Assembly: GCA_035763805.1 (NCBI GenBank)
Contig: DASUAL010000092.1
Span: 26,386 to 90,385 of the forward strand
DNA length: 64,000 nucleotides
Direction of reading: 5' to 3'
Source: Gemmatimonadales bacterium
GTDB taxonomy: Bacteria > Gemmatimonadota > Gemmatimonadetes > Gemmatimonadales > GWC2-71-9
Shown: positions 52,330 through 64,000 of the stretch, piece after piece
Layout of the letters: each line of letters opens with the position of its first letter
Position numbering within the stretch: position 1 is the first letter of the stretch
Program-made: the position numbers and the translations under genes
Notes under the pieces: model-generated
The model's input: only the letters and a program-made list of their open reading frames with translations
The model's database searches: none
What the model was told of the DNA's origin: nothing

Positions 52330-53520
52330 TCAGGCTTCGTCGTGCTTCCGACGCTTGTCCCGGTACAGGGCGCGGTCGGCCCGCTCGAGCAGGCCGGCGA
52401 CCGAGCTCAGGGTGCTCGCCTTGTGCGACGCGAAACCCAGGCTGATCGAGAGCTGATACGGGCGCGCCGCGCGGCGGTTGAACTCGCGCACCTGTCGCTT
52501 CAGTCGGTCCGCGAGGACGCCGGGGCTCTCGGTCCCCGCGTGGCGCACGAGCACCGCGTATTCGTCGCCGCCGATCCGGGCGACGAGGTCCGAGTCGCGA
52601 AACGTCTGCCGCAGGACGACGGCGGTGTCGCGCAGCGCGCGATCACCGACCGCGTGGCCCGCCGTGTCGTTCACGCGCTTGAGATCGTCCAGGTCGGCGA
52701 ACGCCACGAGCAGCGTCTCGTCGCCGCGGCGCGCGAGACGGAGATCCCGCGCCGCGAGCGTCAGGAACCCCCGCCGGTTGTACAACCCGGTCAAATCGTC
52801 GACGAGCGCCAGGTCCAGGAGCGCGGCACGGAGTCGGTTCCGCTCGATCGCGTGGCGCAGCGCCCGGGCGAGGAGCTCGCCGTCGACGGCGCCTTTCACG
52901 AGGACGTCCTGGGCGCCGGCGCGCACCGCTTCGAGCCCACGGCGCTCATCGTCCGTGTCCGAGAGAAAGAGGAATGGCACGGCAGGTGCGAGCGCGCGCA
53001 GCTCCGCGAACGTCGCGAAGCCGCGGCGGGCGGAGAGCGACATGACGAGGAGTACGACGTCGACTCCGCCCTTCGCCAACCGGGCGAGCGACGCCTGCGG
53101 CGCCGCCGCCGCCACGCCGAACTGGTCCCGGGCCGCGCCGTCCAGGAGCTCCCGCACCCAGCGGGCTTGATCGTCCTGGTCGCTCACCACCAGCACGACG
53201 GGCCTGTCGCGCGACCCAGCCTCCGCCTGGCGCCGGGGACCGCGCTGACGGCGATCAGCGCCCTGCCGCCGGTCGAGCTGATCGCGCCGCTCCTCGAGGA
53301 GCGGGACGACCTCCAGGCGGCGCTCGCCGATCCGACGCTCGATGTCACTTCGGCGGGGCGGAAGCAGCCGCCGCTCGGCGGCGTGGTGCTGCTCGCGCGC
53401 GACCATCCCATGTCTCCTGTGCTCCGGCACCTGCAAGATGGGGGACCAGCCCCCTGCTACACAATCGTGCGCATAGCCTTCATCCATCCTCCGGGGCGCC
53501 CAACCCTGCGACCTCGCCAC
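52330..53520 (-). CDS. Diguanylate cyclase (GGDEF) with pseudo-receiver domain and Arg-rich N-terminus
   Basis: 'DDLTGLYNRRGF', 'RIGGDEYAVL'. Receiver-like segment with 'VVLLVMSLS' (acceptor Asp position is Val). Start uncertain (53520/53487/53406). Confidence 0.8.
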   Translation of the reverse strand: MARSQGWAPRRMDEGYAHDCVAGGWSPILQVPEHRRHGMVAREQHHAAERRLLPPRRSDIERRIGERRLEVVPLLEERRDQLDRRQGADRRQRGPRRQAEAGSRDRPVVLVVSDQDDQARWVRELLDGAARDQFGVAAAAPQASLARLAKGGVDVVLLVMSLSARRGFATFAELRALAPAVPFLFLSDTDDERRGLEAVRAGAQDVLVKGAVDGELLARALRHAIERNRLRAALLDLALVDDLTGLYNRRGFLTLAARDLRLARRGDETLLVAFADLDDLKRVNDTAGHAVGDRALRDTAVVLRQTFRDSDLVARIGGDEYAVLVRHAGTESPGVLADRLKRQVREFNRRAARPYQLSISLGFASHKASTLSSVAGLLERADRALYRDKRRKHDEA

Positions 53521-55026: not shown

Positions 55027-55305
55027 CAGTCAGATCCGTTGCCGCTCCACTTGCCGCTTCTCTCCGCTCGCTGTTGGATCGGCGCGAGGGCCGCGTTCAG
55101 GTCGGCAACCCAGCGGGGGTGGGGGCTAACACGCACTGCTCATGTCTCCCGGCGCACTTCGTGGTGCTTTTCGCTGCAGCCGACAGGCCTCGCTCACGCG
55201 ACCCCTGTGGAGCAGGGGCATGACGTCGATGATGAGAAAAGCAGAAACAGTTTGTCGAGGCCCCGGCGTTGACGCAACGCTCTGGGTGTTGCACGGATGC
55301 AACGA

Positions 55306-57435
55306 CTACTTGCGCCGCTTCGAACCGAGCAACGAATGCCTCACGATGCCGTCGGGCACCGTGTCGCCGTGCGGCACCGTGAATACCGTTTTTCGCGTCA
55401 ACCCGAAATCGAGCTCCACGACCAGGTGACTGCGGTCACGGGCCATTCGCCAGCCCCGGGATGACTTCGGCTCACCGCCGGTGGCCGTCAATGCGGCGGT
55501 CACGACCTCGTCCGGTGGATCGCTCACGGCGGCGAGCTGCGCGCAGGTGGAGCAGCGGCGCGACTGGCGGGCCGGCTCGAGCTGCCCGAGATCCGCGGTG
55601 CATACGTGCCGGCCGCAGTAGCCGCACGCCGCCCGATGTCGCGGGCACGCGTCCTTGCCGCAGATCGGACATTCCTTCACGCCGCCGAGCGAGAACGCCC
55701 GACCGTCCACGTGGCACTGCTTGCGGTGCGCCGGGCAGCCGTATGAGTCCTTCGCGTCGAGCAGTGGCTCGAGGTGGGTGACGCAGTGGCGCTCCTTGTC
55801 CTCGATGCACTCGGCCGAGTGGCCGGCGCAGACGGATCGCCCGCACGAGGCGCAGGGCCCGACCTCATCCGACGCGAACAGCGCGGCCGGTTCGACGGCG
55901 CAGGCGGCCCGATGCCGCGCACAGACCAGGCGCCGCGAGGTGTCGGTGCGGCGCAGGTGTCGCGAGCAGTGCACCTGTCCATCCACGACGCACACGGCCT
56001 GATGCGCCGTGCAGACCGACTTTTCGCAGCTGGCGCACGCCGTCACCTCGTCCACACCCACCGGCTCGTTCGTGCCGCCCTCACAGTAGCGCAGGCAGGC
56101 CGCGCACAGCCGGCGGCTTCCCTTGGGCGCGTCGGCGCCGCTCTGCTGCGCGTGCCGGTTACAGATCACCCGGCCGCAGCTGCCGCAAGGCGCGAGGCAC
56201 GCCGAGCAGGCGGTGTGCCCGCCCTCGGCACACGCACCCTCGTGCGCCGTGCAGTACTGCAGCCGGCACGACGGGCAGACCCGCGCGTGCTCCTCGCACG
56301 CCGGCTGCTCATCCACGCGACACTGGGTGATGCCGTGGTCCGCGCAAAAGTCCTCGGCACACACCGAGCAGCGATATGAGCAGGCCTCACAGCCGCAGTG
56401 GGCCTGCTTGCAGACGACGAGGGTCGCGGGCGGGCGGCCACAATGTGGACACGCCATGATCCAGGCTGCCGCACCACTCAAGGGCCGCTGCGCGCTGAAT
56501 GTTGCCCGACGCCCGCGGGCCGACTCGAGCTGCCACTCCGCCCGCTGCATCACGACGCCGGCCTCGATGAGCTGCAAGGGATGGACGATGGCCCGTACTT
56601 GATTGCGCCGCACTTCCTCGGTGCGGCGCCGCTCGCGCAGCGCCTCGACCGTTGCCATGGACTCCGGATCGCCCTGCTCCTGCAGAATCGACGCGAAGTA
56701 CCGCTCCAGCCTGGCGAGCTCGGCGGCAAGCTCCTGCTCGGCCGCGGCGCGGCGCGCGGCGACCCGCTCCGCCGACTTGTCCCGCAGATTGCCGAGCAGT
56801 AGCCGCAGCAGCTCCGCCGGCTCCCGCGCGGGGACGGCTGCCGCGTCCGCTCCGGCCGACCGATCCGCAGGTCCGACCCGGCCCGCCTCCAGGTCCTGGA
56901 ACAGGCCGGCCAGATCGTCGCCCAGCCGCGCGCCGGCCGACAGGTCATACACGTCGCTTTCCACCACGGCTTCCTCGACCCCGGCACCCGCGCGGAGCAC
57001 AACGCGCGCGATGAGTCGCCCAACCGGATGTACGACCAGCAGTGTCTTGCCCGGCCGCGCCGTGCCGTCGCGCACGGGGACCGCCAGCTCGACGCCCGCG
57101 GGATCGCTCGGGGCGGTCGGCGCCATCAGGCCGACTGAGAGGCGCGCCGCCCGCGCGCGAATCGCCTCGAGCAGCTGAGTGAGGAAGGGGCTGCCCAACA
57201 CCGCTATCTCGGCGTCCGGGTCGCGCTCCAGAGCGTCGAGCGAGAACGCCACCCGCAGCGACTCGCGGTCCCGGAAGAAGGGGCGCTCCCCCTGGGGCAA
57301 GAGCAGCTCGACGTGATCGGCACCGACGGCGGTCTGTTTCACGCCCGCCAGCCGGCAGTAGCGCTCGAGCAGCGGCCGGATGCGCGCGTCGGCGAGGGGA
57401 TCGGTGTCGCCGGGAGCGTGGGGGTGGGCCGTCAC
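55306..57435 (-). CDS. 709-aa uncharacterised protein: alpha/beta N-domain, coiled coil, about 300-aa Cys/His-rich multi-zinc-module array, small C-terminal domain
   Basis: GTG 57435 overlaps the helicase TGA (GTGA). Repeated 'CxxC-x4-C-x2-H' units, e.g. 'CSVCAEDFCADH', 'CPSCRLQYCTAH', 'CASCEKSVCTAH', 'CASCGRSVCAGH', 'CPICGKDACPRH'. The upstream part of the 863-aa ORF overlaps the helicase and is Arg/Gly-rich. Confidence 0.7.
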   Translation of the reverse strand: MTAHPHAPGDTDPLADARIRPLLERYCRLAGVKQTAVGADHVELLLPQGERPFFRDRESLRVAFSLDALERDPDAEIAVLGSPFLTQLLEAIRARAARLSVGLMAPTAPSDPAGVELAVPVRDGTARPGKTLLVVHPVGRLIARVVLRAGAGVEEAVVESDVYDLSAGARLGDDLAGLFQDLEAGRVGPADRSAGADAAAVPAREPAELLRLLLGNLRDKSAERVAARRAAAEQELAAELARLERYFASILQEQGDPESMATVEALRERRRTEEVRRNQVRAIVHPLQLIEAGVVMQRAEWQLESARGRRATFSAQRPLSGAAAWIMACPHCGRPPATLVVCKQAHCGCEACSYRCSVCAEDFCADHGITQCRVDEQPACEEHARVCPSCRLQYCTAHEGACAEGGHTACSACLAPCGSCGRVICNRHAQQSGADAPKGSRRLCAACLRYCEGGTNEPVGVDEVTACASCEKSVCTAHQAVCVVDGQVHCSRHLRRTDTSRRLVCARHRAACAVEPAALFASDEVGPCASCGRSVCAGHSAECIEDKERHCVTHLEPLLDAKDSYGCPAHRKQCHVDGRAFSLGGVKECPICGKDACPRHRAACGYCGRHVCTADLGQLEPARQSRRCSTCAQLAAVSDPPDEVVTAALTATGGEPKSSRGWRMARDRSHLVVELDFGLTRKTVFTVPHGDTVPDGIVRHSLLGSKRRK

Positions 57436-59561
57436 GCGGCGGAGTCCCCCACCAGTGGCGCCGCGGCGTCCGCCTCGATGTCCACCAGCACCAGGGGAAG
57501 CCGGTCCACCTGCGCCACGAGCACGACGGACCGTCCGGCGTCGGTCACTCCGGTGAGCCGCACCAGCGCGCCGTACTCCGGATGCTCGCCCGCCGGCTCC
57601 GGCGTCGTAACGCTCTCGATCGCCTCGAGCACTTCCTTCACGTGCACGCCGACCTTGTGGCGCTTCGCGTCCCAGCCGGTCGCCTTGACGAGCTGGCTCG
57701 TGCCGTAGCCGAGTCGCAGGCGGCCCGGGACCGACAGCGTCTGGAACCGTCGCTCGAGCCGCATGGCGTTGTCGTCCGGCGCGATGAGGGAGTTCAGTTG
57801 TTCCTGCTCCTTGCCTGCCGCGCGGCTGTGCTCGATCTCGGCGCCGATCGTTTCCACCCGGCGCGCGAAGTCCGCTTCGCTGTCGGCGGCGAGCCACTCT
57901 TCCGCCAGCCGGCCCTCGAACTGCTGCGCGCCCCCGAACTCGCCGAGGATCACGTCCAGCTCGCCCACGACCAGCTCGAACAGCTTGATCTTCTGGTCGA
58001 GCAGGCCGAGGATGTACGACTCGATGGTCCCCGCGGCGGCGAGGTTCACGATGTGGACCTCGCGCGTCTGCCCGATACGGTGGAGGCGCCCGATGCGTTG
58101 CTCGACGACCATCGGGTTCCAGGGCAAGTCAAAGTTCACGAGCACGTTGCAGAACTGGAGGTTGCGTCCTTCGCTGCCCGCGCGGGTGGCGATCAGGACG
58201 CTGCGGTCGTCCTGGTGGAAGGCGCGGATGCGCTTGTCTCGCTCGGGTGTCGAGTGAGTGCCCCAATAGACGATCGGCTTGCGACCGAGTGCCTTGACCT
58301 GCCGCTCGATCAGCTGGATGGTGGGCTTGTGGTCGCTGAAGACCACCACCCGATCCGGGGTCTCCTGCAGCAGCTCGGTGAGCACGTCCAGCTTGGCGTG
58401 GGTGTCGATCTGCCGCGCCCGCTCAGCGAGCCGGCGCGCGATCTCGCGGTACTCAGGACTGACCTGCTCTCCCTCGGCGAGGTGCTCGAGTGATTCGCCG
58501 AGCGCGCGCGAGGAGGAGCACAGCCGCTGGCGCAGGTGGATCACCGCGAGCTGCAGGATCCCCTTCCCCGTACGCCGACGGCGCCGGGCTCCGTCCTCCA
58601 CCTCCTCCTGCTCGCTGGGCTGAATGAATCCTTCCTTATACAGGCGGCGCAGGAACTGGGTGGTGCTGTCGTACAGCTCCGCCTCGGCGGGCGTCAGCCG
58701 GACCTCGGGGTGTCGGGGGCGGCGCGGCGGCAGGTCCAGATCGTCCACCACGCTGGCGCGCCGCGTGCGGACCATCACCTCGTGCGTCAGCGCGCGCAGG
58801 GCGTCGGGGTCGCGGGGAGTGCGGTGGTCGCCGGCGACCAGGTGCTGACGGCGGAACTCCGGCCAGGTGCCGAGCTGCCCCGGCCGGAGCAGCGTGACGA
58901 GGTTGTACAGCTCGCGCAGGTCGTTCTGGAGCGGCGTCGCGGTGAGCAGCAGGATGAAGTCCCGCTCGATTTTCTCGATGAACCGATACGTCGCGCCGCG
59001 GTGGCTCTTGACCTTGTGCGCCTCGTCCACGATCACGAGATCCCAGCGATGCCGTAGGATCTCCTCGGCGTGCCGGCGCGCCCGCGCGCGGTCGTGCGAC
59101 ACGATCGCCTTGGTGACGCGGTGCCAGTCGTCGGGGTCGGTCGGCGTGTCGAAGCGCTCGAAGAACTTCTCCTCGAGCTCCCCCTGCCACTGGCCCACCA
59201 GCGAGGCCGGCGTCAGGATGAGCACGCGGCGGGCGAGCCCGCGAATCGCCAGCTCCTTGTAGATGATGCTCGCCTCGATCGTCTTGCCCAGGCCGACCTC
59301 GTCGGCGAGGATCGCGCGGCCGCCCATGTGGCGCAGCACTCGCTGCGCGACGTCGATCTGGTGGGGCAGCTCCTTGATGGCGTTGGCGTCGAGGGTGATC
59401 AGGCGGTCGAAGCCGGGGACCAGGGCGATGCGTTCCGCGTCGCGCCGCAGCTCGTACCAGGCGCGCACGGCGGGGGGCTGCTTGAGCTTTTCGGCGAACG
59501 CCTGGAGGGAGCGCTCGTCAACAGCCCAGGAGTCGTCGGACAGCGGGTCGGGCAGCGTCAT
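57432..59561 (-). CDS. SNF2-family helicase/ATPase (RapA/HepA-like core) with about 170-aa unknown C-terminal extension
   Basis: Motif I 'LADEVGLGKTIEA', motif II 'LVIVDEAHKVKS', 'LLLTATPLQN', 'LIATRAGSEGRNLQ', motif VI 'QRIGRLHRIGQT'. Confidence 0.9.
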   Translation of the reverse strand: MTLPDPLSDDSWAVDERSLQAFAEKLKQPPAVRAWYELRRDAERIALVPGFDRLITLDANAIKELPHQIDVAQRVLRHMGGRAILADEVGLGKTIEASIIYKELAIRGLARRVLILTPASLVGQWQGELEEKFFERFDTPTDPDDWHRVTKAIVSHDRARARRHAEEILRHRWDLVIVDEAHKVKSHRGATYRFIEKIERDFILLLTATPLQNDLRELYNLVTLLRPGQLGTWPEFRRQHLVAGDHRTPRDPDALRALTHEVMVRTRRASVVDDLDLPPRRPRHPEVRLTPAEAELYDSTTQFLRRLYKEGFIQPSEQEEVEDGARRRRRTGKGILQLAVIHLRQRLCSSSRALGESLEHLAEGEQVSPEYREIARRLAERARQIDTHAKLDVLTELLQETPDRVVVFSDHKPTIQLIERQVKALGRKPIVYWGTHSTPERDKRIRAFHQDDRSVLIATRAGSEGRNLQFCNVLVNFDLPWNPMVVEQRIGRLHRIGQTREVHIVNLAAAGTIESYILGLLDQKIKLFELVVGELDVILGEFGGAQQFEGRLAEEWLAADSEADFARRVETIGAEIEHSRAAGKEQEQLNSLIAPDDNAMRLERRFQTLSVPGRLRLGYGTSQLVKATGWDAKRHKVGVHVKEVLEAIESVTTPEPAGEHPEYGALVRLTGVTDAGRSVVLVAQVDRLPLVLVDIEADAAAPLVGDSAA

Positions 59562-59572
59562 GCGGTGCCTGA

Positions 59573-59596
59573 GGGTCGGGGTCGGGGTCGGGGTGG
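59573..59596. repeat. Tandem hexamer tract (GGGGTC)x3 on + strand = (GACCCC)-type C-runs in the helicase 5' leader
   Basis: 'gggtcggggtcggggtcggggtgg' begins 12 nt upstream of the helicase ATG (59561, - strand). Confidence 0.9.
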
Positions 59597-59611
59597 CAAT
59601 ATAGCGGATGG

Positions 59612-59639
59612 CCGTTGGCCATTGGCCGTCGGCTGTTGG
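59612..59639. repeat. Four tandem 7-bp units CCNTNGG
   Basis: 'ccgttgg ccattgg ccgtcgg ctgttgg' contiguous, in the helicase upstream region. Confidence 0.85.
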
Positions 59640-59726: not shown

Positions 59727-60098
59727 TTAGACGGTCATCCCAACCGCTCTCCCAGTCACGGGAAAGACCCACGTCCTGTCGTCGACGACGAGCCGGATGT
59801 CACCGTTCGAGGAGACCAGGGCGTTGACGATGTCGTACGTGCCTGGGAAGGGCACGTTCAGCCCCTCCAGCGTCACGTCGGCCGGGAGGGGGAGGTGGTC
59901 ACCCGGACTCAAGACCCTCCTGACGCGAATCGGGCCCATGGTGCAAAAGAAGGTCTGGCCATCCGGGCTGCCGGCGAGAGCGCTGACTCTGACATTCGGC
60001 AGATCGGCCCTGACCTGTTGGCCGTGCGAAACCTGCGCTTCCTCCAACCGCTGCTTGAGCTTGAACTGCTGCGACATGGCCGTGATGCGGGCTTCCAT
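59727..60098 (-). CDS. Hypothetical 123-aa protein (no family recognised)
   Basis: ATG 60098 preceded by 'GGAGGTGG' SD. Has its own terminator hairpin. Sequence 'MEARITAMSQQFKLKQRLEEAQ..' then a beta-rich part. Confidence 0.5.
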   Translation of the reverse strand: MEARITAMSQQFKLKQRLEEAQVSHGQQVRADLPNVRVSALAGSPDGQTFFCTMGPIRVRRVLSPGDHLPLPADVTLEGLNVPFPGTYDIVNALVSSNGDIRLVVDDRTWVFPVTGRAVGMTV

Positions 60099-60338
60099 AA
60101 GCCACCTCCAACTAGGGCACCAACCTACTGCTGCAGCCGCCATGCCTCGGCTCGGCAGCAACACAGCTCGATTGCCCGCAAGGGGTTAGCCTTTTGGATC
60201 CGTTCGAATCGGTGCAGGGTGCAGCATGCCGGCGCTGGCTGAAGTGTGGTACAACTGCTACGGACGACGTGCGGCGCGGCCCAGTGCTCGTCGGCCCACT
60301 TGCACGGCGGGTCGCGGGCTCCTACTCTCTCGACGGCC

Positions 60339-60587
60339 ATGTCACCCGCAACGCGCTACATCATCCAGGTGGACCGACCCGGCGAGCAGGTCGACATGGC
60401 GGCAATCCGAGTTCTGCTCGAGGGGGCGGGGGTCGCGTTGGACCCCGCCTACGGCCCGATCCCCATCAATCCCAAGCTCGGTCGCTACGTCGTCCGCGGT
60501 ACGGCCTCGCCCGACGCGCGCGCTCGGGCCGAGCAGATTCCCGGCGTGCGCTTCTTCGCGGACACGGTCCAGGAGCCGGCTTCCTGA
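60339..60587 (+). CDS. 82-aa protein paralogous to the subtilase N-terminal (I9-propeptide-like) domain
   Basis: 'RYIIQV..VLLEGAGVALDPAYGPIPI..RYVVRGTASPDARARAEQIPGVRFFADTVQEP' aligns by eye with the subtilase 'RRIVVI..VLLDGMVKVAGVRFDEAYYPVRI..TYAVRVEIDDEDAVERLRRDRRAEFIGVFADPAVSP'. Weak RBS; alternative GTG at 60246. Confidence 0.5.
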   Translation: MSPATRYIIQVDRPGEQVDMAAIRVLLEGAGVALDPAYGPIPINPKLGRYVVRGTASPDARARAEQIPGVRFFADTVQEPAS

Positions 60588-60594
60588 CGCCGGG

Positions 60595-61905
60595 CTACGC
60601 CGTCGTTTTTCCTCGTTTCCGCCGCAGCGCCTTCAGCGCCGCCGCGGCATCGATCACACCGTAACCAAAATCGTAGTCCCAGCCGTCGCCGTGCAGGTCC
60701 CGCGCCGTCCGCTGCAGCAGACCCTTGAGCTGCGCCGGCGCGAGTCGGTTGGTGGCGAAGCGCTGGCGGAGCGCGGCCGCCACGCCGGCGGCGATCGGAC
60801 TCGCCGCCGAGGTGCCTCCGTCGGCAGGGTAGATGCCTGAGCCCGCGAAGTGACTGAAGCCTGCGAGGTCGGGCTTGCGCGAGTAGAGCGCGCCCGGCCC
60901 CTGCGACGAATAGCCCAGGCGGCGGTCCGTGACGGTGACGGCGGCGACGGTGACGACCTCAGGATGGGAGTTCGCGCCGTGGAGGCTGGCCCCGGGGCCC
61001 GTATCGCCGGCGCCGCACCTCCCGTCGGGGCAATCGGCCCCGCAGTTCCCCGCGGCGAAGAACACGTCCGCTCCCGCCGCGACCAGGGCGCCGGTGATCT
61101 GGTTGAACGGGTGCTCGGGATTGGCGCTGTAGTTGTCCGGCGAACCGATCGGTGCGTCGCTCGTGCGGTCGAACAGCCCCCAGCTATTGTTCACTACCCA
61201 CCGGCCCGGCGCGGCGCTCACCCGCTCCACGAGGTCCGCGAACGCGGCGATGGCATCGGAGAGAAACGCGGCCCAGGTCCCCGCTTGGGACTGGAGGAGC
61301 GCGTAGTCGAAGATCTGCGCGTCGGGGGCCGCGACGCGGACGTCGTACGCCACCATGGTGCCGTGGTCCGGCGCGCTCGAGCCCGGCACATAGCCCGGGA
61401 TCGGGGCCCAGCCGCCCGCGACCGGAATGCGCGAGCCGTCGATCCCCGTGTCGACCACCGCGACGTGGACGCCACGGCCGGTCAGTCCGGCCCGGCGCAG
61501 CGCCGGGACGCCGAGCCGCCGCGCCACGTCGTCCGTCTCACCGATCGGGCGACCCCCGCAATAGGGGGATGGGAACGGCGAGACGGCGGGGTCTGCGAAT
61601 ACTCCGATGAACTCGGCGCGGCGGTCGCGCCGCAGCCGCTCGACCGCGTCCTCGTCGTCGATTTCCACCCGCACCGCGTAGGTGTCCGCCCCTCCGACGC
61701 CGCCGTAGTTGAAGGCGCCCGCGGCCAGGGGGGCGAGGAGTCCGATGCGGCGCAGTATCCGGACCGGGTAATAGGCCTCGTCGAACCGCACGCCAGCGAC
61801 CTTGACCATGCCATCGAGGAGCACCCCGGCGGGCCCGAACGAGCGCTTGCGCCAGCCGTCTTGCAGGGACTCGTGGCTCCGGATCACGACAATGCGCCGC
61901 AGCAT
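60595..61905 (-). CDS. Subtilisin-like serine protease (S8), no signal peptide
   Basis: SD 'AAGGAGGG' upstream of ATG 61905. Triad 'VAVVDTGID', 'DHGTMVA', 'GGTSAASPIAAG'. Oxyanion 'VVNNSWG'. Confidence 0.85.
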   Translation of the reverse strand: MLRRIVVIRSHESLQDGWRKRSFGPAGVLLDGMVKVAGVRFDEAYYPVRILRRIGLLAPLAAGAFNYGGVGGADTYAVRVEIDDEDAVERLRRDRRAEFIGVFADPAVSPFPSPYCGGRPIGETDDVARRLGVPALRRAGLTGRGVHVAVVDTGIDGSRIPVAGGWAPIPGYVPGSSAPDHGTMVAYDVRVAAPDAQIFDYALLQSQAGTWAAFLSDAIAAFADLVERVSAAPGRWVVNNSWGLFDRTSDAPIGSPDNYSANPEHPFNQITGALVAAGADVFFAAGNCGADCPDGRCGAGDTGPGASLHGANSHPEVVTVAAVTVTDRRLGYSSQGPGALYSRKPDLAGFSHFAGSGIYPADGGTSAASPIAAGVAAALRQRFATNRLAPAQLKGLLQRTARDLHGDGWDYDFGYGVIDAAAALKALRRKRGKTTA

Positions 61906-62126
61906 ACGCCTCTTTCCCTCCTTGTAGTCGGAGGTCGGGGCGCACGTGTAGGTACCCCGAGGCCGTCCTTGTGGCATCCGCCGTCTGTCACGCTGACCGT
62001 CGGTGTTTGTCAGCTCGACAACCCCCCAGCCCCCCTGCTCAAACTCTGGCACGCCGGTCGCCTGGCGCCTCTGTGGCGCCATCACGCGGCGCCAGATTCC
62101 AACACCGTAGTCGCAAGGAGGATGTT

Positions 62127-62585: not shown

Positions 62586-63059
62586 ATGTTCCAAGAGGTC
62601 TTGCTGTGGCTCTTCGTCGTCTTCAGCGGCATTGCAGTTGGCGCCGGCCTCTATGAAATGAGGATCACCGTTCCTCTGTGGTTCAGCCGTTCTGCAGAGT
62701 CCGGCATTCAAGTGAACAGCGAAGCAATGCTAAGGGCCGATGCGGGCCGGAGGTTCTGGGTCTTCGTCACGACAGTCCCGCTCACGCTGCTTACGCTGGC
62801 GAGTCTGGCAGTTGCTTGGCAACCTGCAAGTCCCAGGCATGAGTGGTGGCTCGTCGCGGCGGTGGTTACGCTGGTGGAGAGAATCGCGACGTTGTCGTAC
62901 TTCATACCAAGGGGCCTCAAATTGATGCGCGCGGACACCCTCCCACGTGCGAGGGTCGAAGCGATGGCGTCGCAGTGGATGGCTCTCAATCGCGTCCGGG
63001 CGGCGCTAGCTCTGACTGGGTGGCTCGCGGCGTTGAAGGCACTGTCCTTGCCAACCTGA
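62586..63059 (+). CDS. DUF1772 (anthrone-oxygenase-like) membrane protein
   Basis: 'LLWLFVVFSGIAVGAGLYEMRITVPLW', four helices, 157 aa. Confidence 0.7.
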   Translation: MFQEVLLWLFVVFSGIAVGAGLYEMRITVPLWFSRSAESGIQVNSEAMLRADAGRRFWVFVTTVPLTLLTLASLAVAWQPASPRHEWWLVAAVVTLVERIATLSYFIPRGLKLMRADTLPRARVEAMASQWMALNRVRAALALTGWLAALKALSLPT

Positions 63060-63598: not shown

Positions 63599-64000
63599 TG
63601 GCTCGCCGCCTCTCGCCTCCACGCCTGATTCGTCCGGTCCACGTCCGCGAAGCCCTCCTTCGGATCGATCACGACCTCCGTCACCTCGGGTCGCGCGGCC
63701 ACCCGTACGAGATGGCGCCGGGCGCCGGCGAGCCAAACGTCCACGGGGACCTCGACCCACTGGACGCTCTCGTCCGCCCGCGTCACCGCGAGTCGGACGG
63801 GCATCGGCGCGAGGCCGCGATCCTCGATCACGATCTCGACTGAATCGCCCGCCGGGCGCACGGCGGCGATCGCCTGGTCCAGCGTCCACGTCTCGAACCA
63901 CCACGTACGCCAGAACCAGTCGAGATCGTGCCCCGCCACATCCTCGAACGTGTTCCAGAAGTCGTAGGGCGACGGGTGCTTGTTGAGCCAGCGGTGCCCG
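63595..64000 (-). CDS. M1-family metallopeptidase, C-terminal part (5' end outside the window)
   Basis: Frame is open to the window edge: 'GHRWLNKHPSPYDFWNTFEDVAGHDLDWFWRTWWFETW' resembles the post-catalytic region of M1-type peptidases. Confidence 0.6.
   Translation of the reverse strand, partial: GHRWLNKHPSPYDFWNTFEDVAGHDLDWFWRTWWFETWTLDQAIAAVRPAGDSVEIVIEDRGLAPMPVRLAVTRADESVQWVEVPVDVWLAGARRHLVRVAARPEVTEVVIDPKEGFADVDRTNQAWRREAASH

Follow-up and report, generated by a model that had tools for sequence, protein, structure and literature searches.

Among bacterial proteins, the chief relatives of the chromatin remodellers of eukaryotes are Swi2/Snf2 enzymes of the RapA type, which comprise both an RNA polymerase (RNAP) recycling factor and BREX-like immune helicases. 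The recycling factor, RapA (HepA) of E. coli, binds RNAP, which stimulates its ATPase. In RapA, residues 711-968 form two domains named 'Spacer' and 'CTD', and a pair of accessory domains, a degenerate, inactive restriction endonuclease (REase) domain and an alpha+beta domain with a coiled coil, has been described for RapA, for BrxHII of type 3 BREX and for the helicases of the BR systems (PMC12839542). RapA also carries a hydrophobic patch (L216, V217, L220, L229, I540 and I541) for the flap-tip helix of the RNAP beta subunit (PMC8501970). Here, we examined a stretch of 64,000 nucleotides from a Gemmatimonadales bacterium (assembly GCA_035763805.1, contig DASUAL010000092.1, positions 26,386 to 90,385 of the forward strand; hereafter, the window), in which a gene for an SNF2-family ATPase is followed by a gene for a partner protein rich in cysteine. 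The architecture class is a known one, that of RapA, BrxHII and the BR-system helicases. As far as architecture goes, the pair is likely to be a RapA/BrxHII-type Swi2/Snf2 enzyme divided between two polypeptides, the accessory domains being carried by the partner. The two genes and the parts of their products are placed as follows.

57432..59561, minus strand: gene for the SNF2-family ATPase, 709 aa, with its stop codon (open reading frame, ORF; Pfam SNF2-rel_dom 1.4e-32, Helicase_C 1.1e-20)
58047..59384, minus strand: Swi2/Snf2 ATPase core (about residues 60-505), with motifs I (DEVGLGKT), II (DEAH), III (TATP), V and VI (QRIGRLHRIGQ), from BLASTP to E. coli RapA
57435..57791, minus strand: C-terminal extension of the SNF2 protein, specific to Gemmatimonadota (about residues 591-709), with an alpha+beta domain modelled at 623-697, from the orthologue alignment and the model
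57432..57435, minus strand: GTGA stop/start overlap of the SNF2 and partner genes, read in the sequence
55306..57435, minus strand: partner gene, 709 aa, stop codon included, translated from a GTG start
57124..57393, minus strand: partner residues 15-104, an alpha-beta-beta-beta-alpha-beta domain equivalent to the RapA Spacer, from hhalign and the modelled order of secondary structure
56476..57123, minus strand: partner residues 105-320, a beta-sheet into which two long coiled-coil helices (206-253 and 257-277) are inserted, equivalent to the RapA CTD, from hhalign and Foldseek
55543..56451, minus strand: partner residues 329-631, tandem Cys/His zinc-binding modules, from motif count, ligand conservation and AlphaFold
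55309..55473, minus strand: partner residues 655-709, a small five-strand beta domain and a basic tail (KRRK), from AlphaFold

The evidence for the RapA accessory domains lies in the first half of the partner. When the family profile of the partner was aligned with hhalign, it matched E. coli RapA at E 5e-4 and the C-terminal profile of RapA with a probability of 83.5% (E 8.3e-6), partner residues 15-246 being colinear with RapA 711-924. A Foldseek search of the PDB with the partner model returned RapA (8so8, 8spg, 6bog and 8t0l; E 1.4e-6 to 3.9e-5, about 305 columns) and nothing besides RapA below E 0.2. Against PDB sequence profiles the same region matches RapA below threshold (E 0.3), a value meaningful only alongside the hhalign and Foldseek results. 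The modelled topology of this half agrees with the published description of both accessory domains (PMC12839542), so that the two domains, their order and their homology to RapA 711-968 are all present, on the partner chain. The first ~310 residues of the partner are thus a divergent form of the RapA C-terminal module, Spacer plus CTD. The first-pass annotation of this DNA, made from the sequence alone, had assigned the partner to no recognised family. That statement stands as far as curated families go and fails for the N-terminal half: Pfam, NCBIfam and PADLOC hold no family for the partner (and none is significant for its 53 relatives, at Pfam E<0.001), and of the separate profile comparisons that had been proposed for the two ends, hhalign recovered RapA for the N-terminal half and gave no match to RapA for the terminal beta domain. 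The accompanying picture of a remodeller with an unrelated adaptor had to be abandoned, since what had been described as an alpha/beta region and an Arg/Glu-rich coiled coil together constitute the RapA-type accessory module.

The ATPase itself is a Swi2/Snf2 protein of superfamily 2 (SF2), with 113 bits for SNF2-rel_dom and 74 bits for Helicase_C, both over the Pfam cut-offs. Its residues 65-504 align with E. coli RapA 155-608 (BLASTP), placing K93, E180 and R495 on the catalytic residues K183, E281 and R599, and a PDB search gave RapA as the closest solved relative of the core; the motifs noted at first reading are complete and the catalytic residues kept. Past the core, the protein is partly shared and partly peculiar to the lineage. 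Residues 505-590 align as a helical region common to orthologues in other phyla, and the orthologues of Chloroflexota and Planctomycetota end at about residue 590, without the extension. An extension of about 170 aa had been claimed: it exists, though with 505-590 shared, its lineage-specific part amounts to about 120 aa (about 590-709). Neither the N-terminal nor the C-terminal part of the SNF2 protein matched RapA in local hhalign comparisons.

The organization of the two genes fits their products being made together. Both ORFs are on the minus strand, in tandem with SNF2 first, and the last two bases of the partner GTG (57435-57433) also open the TGA stop of SNF2; 9 nt upstream of it lies a GGGGGA run resembling a Shine-Dalgarno sequence. 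The partner frame is open further upstream, to 57897 (an 863-aa ORF), and in the alignment of relatives the family is conserved only from residue ~10 onward, counted in the 709-aa form. Independent gene calls of related contigs contain the same 4-nt overlap. Both 709-aa gene models, their coordinates and the GTGA overlap had been proposed beforehand, and the ORFs and the relatives' gene calls bear them out. Through translational coupling the two chains would be produced, we infer, in roughly equal amounts. The G+C content of the window is about 70% overall, and there is no compositional break at the pair.

Beyond the RapA-like module, the partner is made of parts that are foreign to RapA. Its AlphaFold model, built from an alignment of 53 family members, has a mean predicted local distance difference test (pLDDT) score of 91 and contains all four parts of the layout first put forward, an alpha/beta region, a coiled coil, a Cys/His array of about 300 aa and a C-terminal beta domain. 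The protein contains 46 Cys and 26 His, with 45 of the 46 Cys in the array; there the motif C-x2-C-x4-C-x2-[H/D] occurs seven times within residues 329-631, and nearly all Cys and His are invariant among relatives, down to 33% identity. From the number of ligands we estimate that the array would carry about 14-16 Zn sites. It is modelled as short beta-hairpin/helix units with pLDDT above 90. One pair of modules (about 62 residues; 526-588 in the window protein) is present or absent among close relatives as a clean indel, and partner length in distant relatives ranges from 546 to 1062 aa; thus, the array grows and shrinks by whole modules. The strands of the terminal beta domain are predicted at 661-666, 670-676, 682-688, 696-701 and 704-708 (AlphaFold), and W662, R666, D667 and H700 are kept down to 33% identity. 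The idea that this domain is a relocated Tudor domain was considered and is unsupported, local hhalign giving no match to RapA. The array bears a weak resemblance to Siva/LIM-like viral zinc proteins, and a viral fold search with the partner returned only uncharacterised Cys-rich proteins of giant viruses and phages, one weak match being annotated as 'prokaryotic metallothionein'.

How does the pair compare with the described systems? With RapA it shares the Swi2/Snf2 core, catalytic residues included, and a colinear Spacer/CTD pair; yet it differs in having these two domains on a separate polypeptide, whereas the C-terminal domain of the SNF2 protein itself is unlike that of RapA (hhalign). 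The tandem Tudor N-domain of RapA (residues 1-107) is lacking, only some 60 aa, without a family match, preceding the SNF2 core. The partner adds the zinc array of about 300 aa and the terminal beta domain, and the SNF2 protein adds its C-terminal domain of about 120 aa. Moreover, the flap-tip patch of RapA is aligned to Q126, G127, E130, T139, T438 and P439, and these positions are non-hydrophobic in most of the family. The SNF2 protein scores 200.3 bits with the NCBIfam RapA equivalog model (PRK04914), far from the cut-off of 576. Hence the concern that this might be the housekeeping RapA locus of the lineage can be answered in part: by score, Tudor domain and flap-tip residues, the SNF2 protein is not RapA itself. 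The helicases BrxHII and those of the BR systems display the same succession of a Swi2/Snf2 core, an inactive REase domain and an alpha+beta domain with a coiled-coil insert (PMC12839542), the SNF2 protein has PADLOC BrxH models among its top matches, and some distant relatives of the pair adjoin BREX-type genes. These helicases, however, consist of one chain with a Tudor domain at its N-terminus, and their operons also encode PglZ, an ATPase and a methyltransferase, all three missing from the window; nor has a zinc array been described for them. PglZ, BrxC and PglXI of a type 3 BREX operon were not found, and PADLOC detected no BREX protein among the window neighbours tested.

Among curated families, the top matches of the SNF2 protein were DrmD (DISARM), BrxH (BREX), HmaA (Hma), DpdE and RapA, all far under the family cut-offs. 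DrmD is the best-scoring profile (PADLOC 8e-70; NCBIfam DrmD_b 1.6e-69), but its 235 and 198 bits compare with cut-offs of 950 and 610, no DrmA, DrmB, DrmC or methyltransferase gene lies near the window pair, and the partner family is outside DISARM. DpdE of Dpd (216 bits, cut-off 500) and ZorD of Zorya (86 bits, cut-off 1500) fall short as well, and their companion genes are missing from the window. The actinobacterial SNF2 plus SWIM pairs (SCO1167/SCO6262-type) also combine an SNF2 gene with a gene for a zinc-binding partner; nevertheless, the score with SCO1167 is 157.7 bits against a cut-off of 1200, and our partner has no SWIM or other Pfam match, consisting instead of a RapA_C-like module and tandem C-x2-C-x4-C-x2-H modules. 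The initial statement that this is not a RapA, DISARM or SWIM-partner arrangement agrees with these sub-cut-off scores. In the libraries and literature searched we found neither the two-gene split, nor the tandem zinc array with its beta domain, nor the Gemmatimonadota SNF2 C-terminal domain, nor a multi-phylum unit with add-ons, and the literature searches gave no description of the SNF2 and partner pair or of the partner family.

The pairing of the two genes is close to obligate. An exhaustive search of 1.84 billion representatives yielded 293 partner relatives (representatives at 50% identity), and scanning a single genome for each GTDB species yielded 70 loci, nearly all in metagenome-assembled genomes (MAGs) of Gemmatimonadales or Gemmatimonadaceae; the few labelled with other taxa are probably mis-binned. 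These 70 species are a minimum, biased to close relatives, the scan having used a narrow alignment because broad ones offered no sufficiently conserved stretch. In 63 of the 63 fetched loci with DNA upstream of the partner (scan loci and three metagenome contigs), an SNF2 orthologue lies immediately upstream on the same strand, with identities of 55-96% for SNF2 and 40-91% for the partner. Distant partners (20-25% identity) were found in a Chloroflexota genome (Candidatus Amarolinea), a Planctomycetota MAG and metagenome contigs, and there too SNF2 lies upstream (33-44% identical). The synteny expected at the outset is therefore observed, in near and distant relatives, with one exception (L079, 6332-12245), where the overlapping upstream gene encodes a 559-aa protein without Pfam match or BLAST similarity to SNF2. 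At this locus the partner homologue is followed by a gene for a kinase-TPR protein. Such adjacency across phyla points to an old, co-evolving two-gene unit.

The surroundings of the pair in other clades vary and often look defence-like. At two loci of Chloroflexota type (L074, 3853-11549; L075, 4464-12743) it belongs to a conserved six-gene set, in the order IetA-like AAA ATPase, an SNF2 protein bearing a zinc ribbon at its N-terminus, partner, DUF2997, DUF1257 (Ycf35-like) and NrdG-like radical-SAM activase, which once adjoins type I restriction-modification genes. In cyanobacteria, DUF2997, DUF1257 and ferredoxin form a conserved cluster of unknown function (PMC4284462). Elsewhere among distant relatives a Ser/Thr kinase is fused to the SNF2 N-terminus. 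One such locus (L080, 1-14671) encodes PglZ, a BrxD-type ATPase and an Lhr-like helicase/exonuclease, followed by an overlapping series of a kinase-SNF2 fusion, a 1062-aa partner, an unassigned 525-aa protein and a HerA-FHA ATPase. We take the PglZ, BrxD-type ATPase and Lhr-like block to be the end of a type 2 BREX operon, presumably, from its gene order. Relatives at 39-43% partner identity include a locus with NmeDI_C and three Uma2 genes nearby, and another (L084, 4026-12082) in which a 1992-aa fusion of RNase_H_2, a superfamily 1 (SF1) helicase (AAA_11/AAA_30) and SNF2 overlaps a 39%-identity partner by 4 nt, amid NOV_C, Fic, SNase, MazG-like, Schlafen-type helicase and NERD genes. Defence-like contexts were thus seen at 20-43% partner identity, and the Gemmatimonadales loci examined were without them. 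In tblastn, the Chloroflexota accessory genes (AAA, DUF1257, DUF2997, radical SAM and hyp429) had no match in the window, which therefore carries only the two-gene core.

Immediately upstream, and further out on either side, the window contains the following features.

59597..59604, minus strand: conserved CTATATTG motif (-10-like, TATATT), ending 36 nt before the SNF2 ATG and the likely core promoter of the pair
59573..59594, minus strand: (CCCGAC)3.7 microsatellite in the leader, found with Tandem Repeats Finder (TRF); GGGTCG on the plus strand
60595-62085, minus strand: Peptidase_S8 subtilase gene, its conserved part probably starting from an internal Met (MLRRIVV...)
60246-60587, plus strand: orf113, a small ORF divergent to the subtilase gene, with about 85 conserved residues
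51828-52313, minus strand: MGMT (Ogt) gene
52330-53520, minus strand: response-regulator-GGDEF gene
62586-63059, plus strand: gene for an Anthrone_oxy-like membrane protein

The CTATATTG motif is invariant in 7 of 7 aligned upstream regions that otherwise diverge in sequence. It has no conserved -35 element and was not passed by a scan with the sigma-70 consensus, which demands one. Its invariance suggests that the pair forms its own transcription unit. An own upstream region with unusual repeats had been remarked upon in the first place: the region does appear to be the pair's own, on account of this motif, the repeats being a CCCGAC run specific to the window and a TGGCCAT run. At the former, a short conserved leader has expanded in the window alone, relatives being 12 nt shorter there. 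Around the pair, the window contains genes for a subtilase, a carbonic anhydrase, a GGDEF regulator and MGMT. Such neighbours recur in shuffled order among related loci, MGMT in 14, the GGDEF regulator in 10 and the subtilase in 13, with carbonic anhydrase, PLD, Smr or RmuC each in single loci. The MGMT, GGDEF and Anthrone_oxy-like genes occur near the pair on varying sides and strands, which points to a conserved but often rearranged neighbourhood. The neighbouring subtilase, noted early on as lacking a signal, is a genuine Peptidase_S8 gene without an obvious signal peptide, and together with orf113 it travels as a unit found on either side of the pair in different relatives. By eye, the orf113 product resembles a free-standing subtilase propeptide/inhibitor (I9-like), with no Pfam match. 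An assignment to IetAS (IetA AAA ATPase plus IetS subtilase) was rejected: the window subtilase matches IetS only at E 3.5e-4, with no qualifying stretch, and the window has no AAA gene.

Gene 1 provides the ATPase core and the lineage-specific C-terminal domain, and gene 2 the Spacer and CTD in trans, the zinc modules and the beta domain. In the mechanism that we propose, the N-terminal half of the partner would dock on the ATPase lobes at the positions taken by Spacer and CTD in RapA, while the zinc-finger rod, presumably rigid, and the terminal beta domain would project as an arm for targeting or sensing; ATP-driven translocation on duplex DNA might then displace or remodel the complex bound by the arm. 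That the pair is both a split, two-chain translocase of the RapA/BrxHII class and a surveillance device for foreign or aberrant nucleic-acid-protein complexes, hence of conflict or defence type, is a joint claim whose chances we put at about even. A surveillance role is favoured by the distant contexts, the fusions to kinases and nucleases, the variation in module number and the DrmD/BrxH-like profile matches. In Gemmatimonadales, with less certainty, such a module may have become a stably inherited, stand-alone pair. A broader version makes the pair the conserved core of a hitherto undescribed multi-phylum conflict or defence family, in which the RapA-type accessory module would have been separated from the motor and joined to an expandable zinc rod that senses a component of the invader, with lineage add-ons that supply the output; this we offer only tentatively, as somewhat short of an even prospect. 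Those add-ons would be a Ser/Thr kinase, an RNase H-like nuclease with an SF1 helicase, an IetA-like AAA with DUF1257, DUF2997 and radical-SAM, HerA-FHA, and a subtilase. Either way, the natural split places the accessory domains on a separately expressible protein, fused to a very confidently modelled rod with about 15 predicted zinc sites, and gives a handle on the control that these domains exert over the motor and on the targeting of such motors; should the pair prove to act in defence, a new type of system is at hand.

Several observations weigh against a split translocase acting in surveillance. On the structural side, the RapA match has a template modelling (TM) score of only ~0.17 of full length and a root-mean-square deviation (RMSD) of ~11 Å, values that are expected for flexible multi-domain matches and are not strong; Pfam RapA_C does not pick up the partner (E 1.8, in one family member of 53); and homology is the one ground on which docking in trans is proposed. 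The SNF2 model is poor as well (overall pLDDT 52, the alpha+beta unit at 623-697 reaching 72-84): predicted from a shallow alignment (at least 82% identity), it offers nothing reliable on the C-terminal domain, and a fold search with it recovered generic SNF2 cores only. As for the role, SNF2 is 76-96% identical across Gemmatimonadales species, matching or exceeding neighbours such as MGMT (64-78%); the Gemmatimonadales loci consist of the bare pair, of native composition, without tRNA or mobile-element genes; close relatives have ordinary genes, or genes for DNA repair, beside the pair (MGMT, Smr, RmuC); and no nuclease, methyltransferase or other effector is found in the pair or adjoining it in the window. 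Strong conservation, an ordinary neighbourhood and the lack of an effector in Gemmatimonadales favour instead a housekeeping or domesticated remodeller, which would resemble RapA in its effect though not in its contacts. The pair would then be the lineage's functional counterpart of RapA (or an Mfd/RapA-like factor coupled to repair), clearing stalled or post-termination RNAP or other protein roadblocks from DNA, with the zinc array and beta domain in place of the Tudor domain as the element that binds RNAP or DNA. In its favour, the partner has RapA as its sole structural relative, and among solved proteins RapA is also closest to SNF2; purifying selection is strong, with near-invariant zinc ligands, over at least 70 species-level genomes labelled Gemmatimonadales or Gemmatimonadaceae; GC content is native, the promoter-like motif is the pair's own and conserved, neighbours such as MGMT are partly conserved (Smr and RmuC in one relative); and no effector gene is attached to the pair. 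Against this stand the RapA score of 200 for a cut-off of 576, the ~60 aa preceding the core where RapA has its Tudor N-domain, the replacement of all six flap-tip residues (by Q, G, E, T, T and P), and family members elsewhere that carry kinase or nuclease fusions and lie in contexts resembling defence islands. On balance we find a housekeeping role less likely than not; were it true, it would show how the same problem is solved in a phylum that has no detectable set of canonical RapA domains.

The subtilase module and the Cys content of the partner each bring up a further explanation. The cytoplasmic subtilase could be the effector of a larger system, with orf113 as its regulator and the SNF2-partner complex as its sensor. 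The module lies co-directionally just upstream of SNF2 in the window and in seven related loci (L006, L007, L009, L010, L014, L030 and L068) and downstream of the partner in four (L022 and L052, where the match begins just before the partner end, and L038 and L067), and genes with linked functions would be expected to stay adjacent through rearrangement in this way. Nevertheless, of the 28 loci with both flanks only 7 have the subtilase, the distant relatives all lack it, the defence protease IetS is matched only marginally (E 3.5e-4), and the conserved promoter-like motif of the pair separates it from the subtilase module, which makes a system of this extent improbable. Far less credible still is that the two genes are unrelated neighbours, the partner being a protein for metal storage or redox chemistry, or metallothionein-like, that happens to follow a helicase gene. 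Its very high Cys/His content and the weak viral match annotated as 'prokaryotic metallothionein' would agree with such a function, yet the invariant adjacency across phyla, the conserved stop/start overlap and the homology of the partner N-terminal half to a pair of domains not known outside SNF2 enzymes already contradict a chance association, to which we attach almost no weight.

A few minor features of the window complete the description.

55266..55303, minus strand: two 6-bp hairpins just past the partner stop (-19 kcal/mol)
59609-59627: (TGGCCAT)2.7 run, found with TRF
59727-60164, minus strand: 145-aa ORF between the subtilase module and SNF2, without family match

The hairpins past the partner stop had been listed as a feature of the locus, a status they lose here: they fold no better than shuffled sequence (z -1.2), have no T-run and were not called as a terminator. 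Scans of the window gave no Rfam family, usable tRNA or GC anomaly. ARAGORN reported a 'tRNA-???' with a 4-base anticodon (gcgc) at 63799-63890 on the minus strand, inside ORFs at the window edge, probably a false positive. The 145-aa ORF recurs in two related loci only, at the same position in L068 and about 5 kb downstream of the pair in L019.

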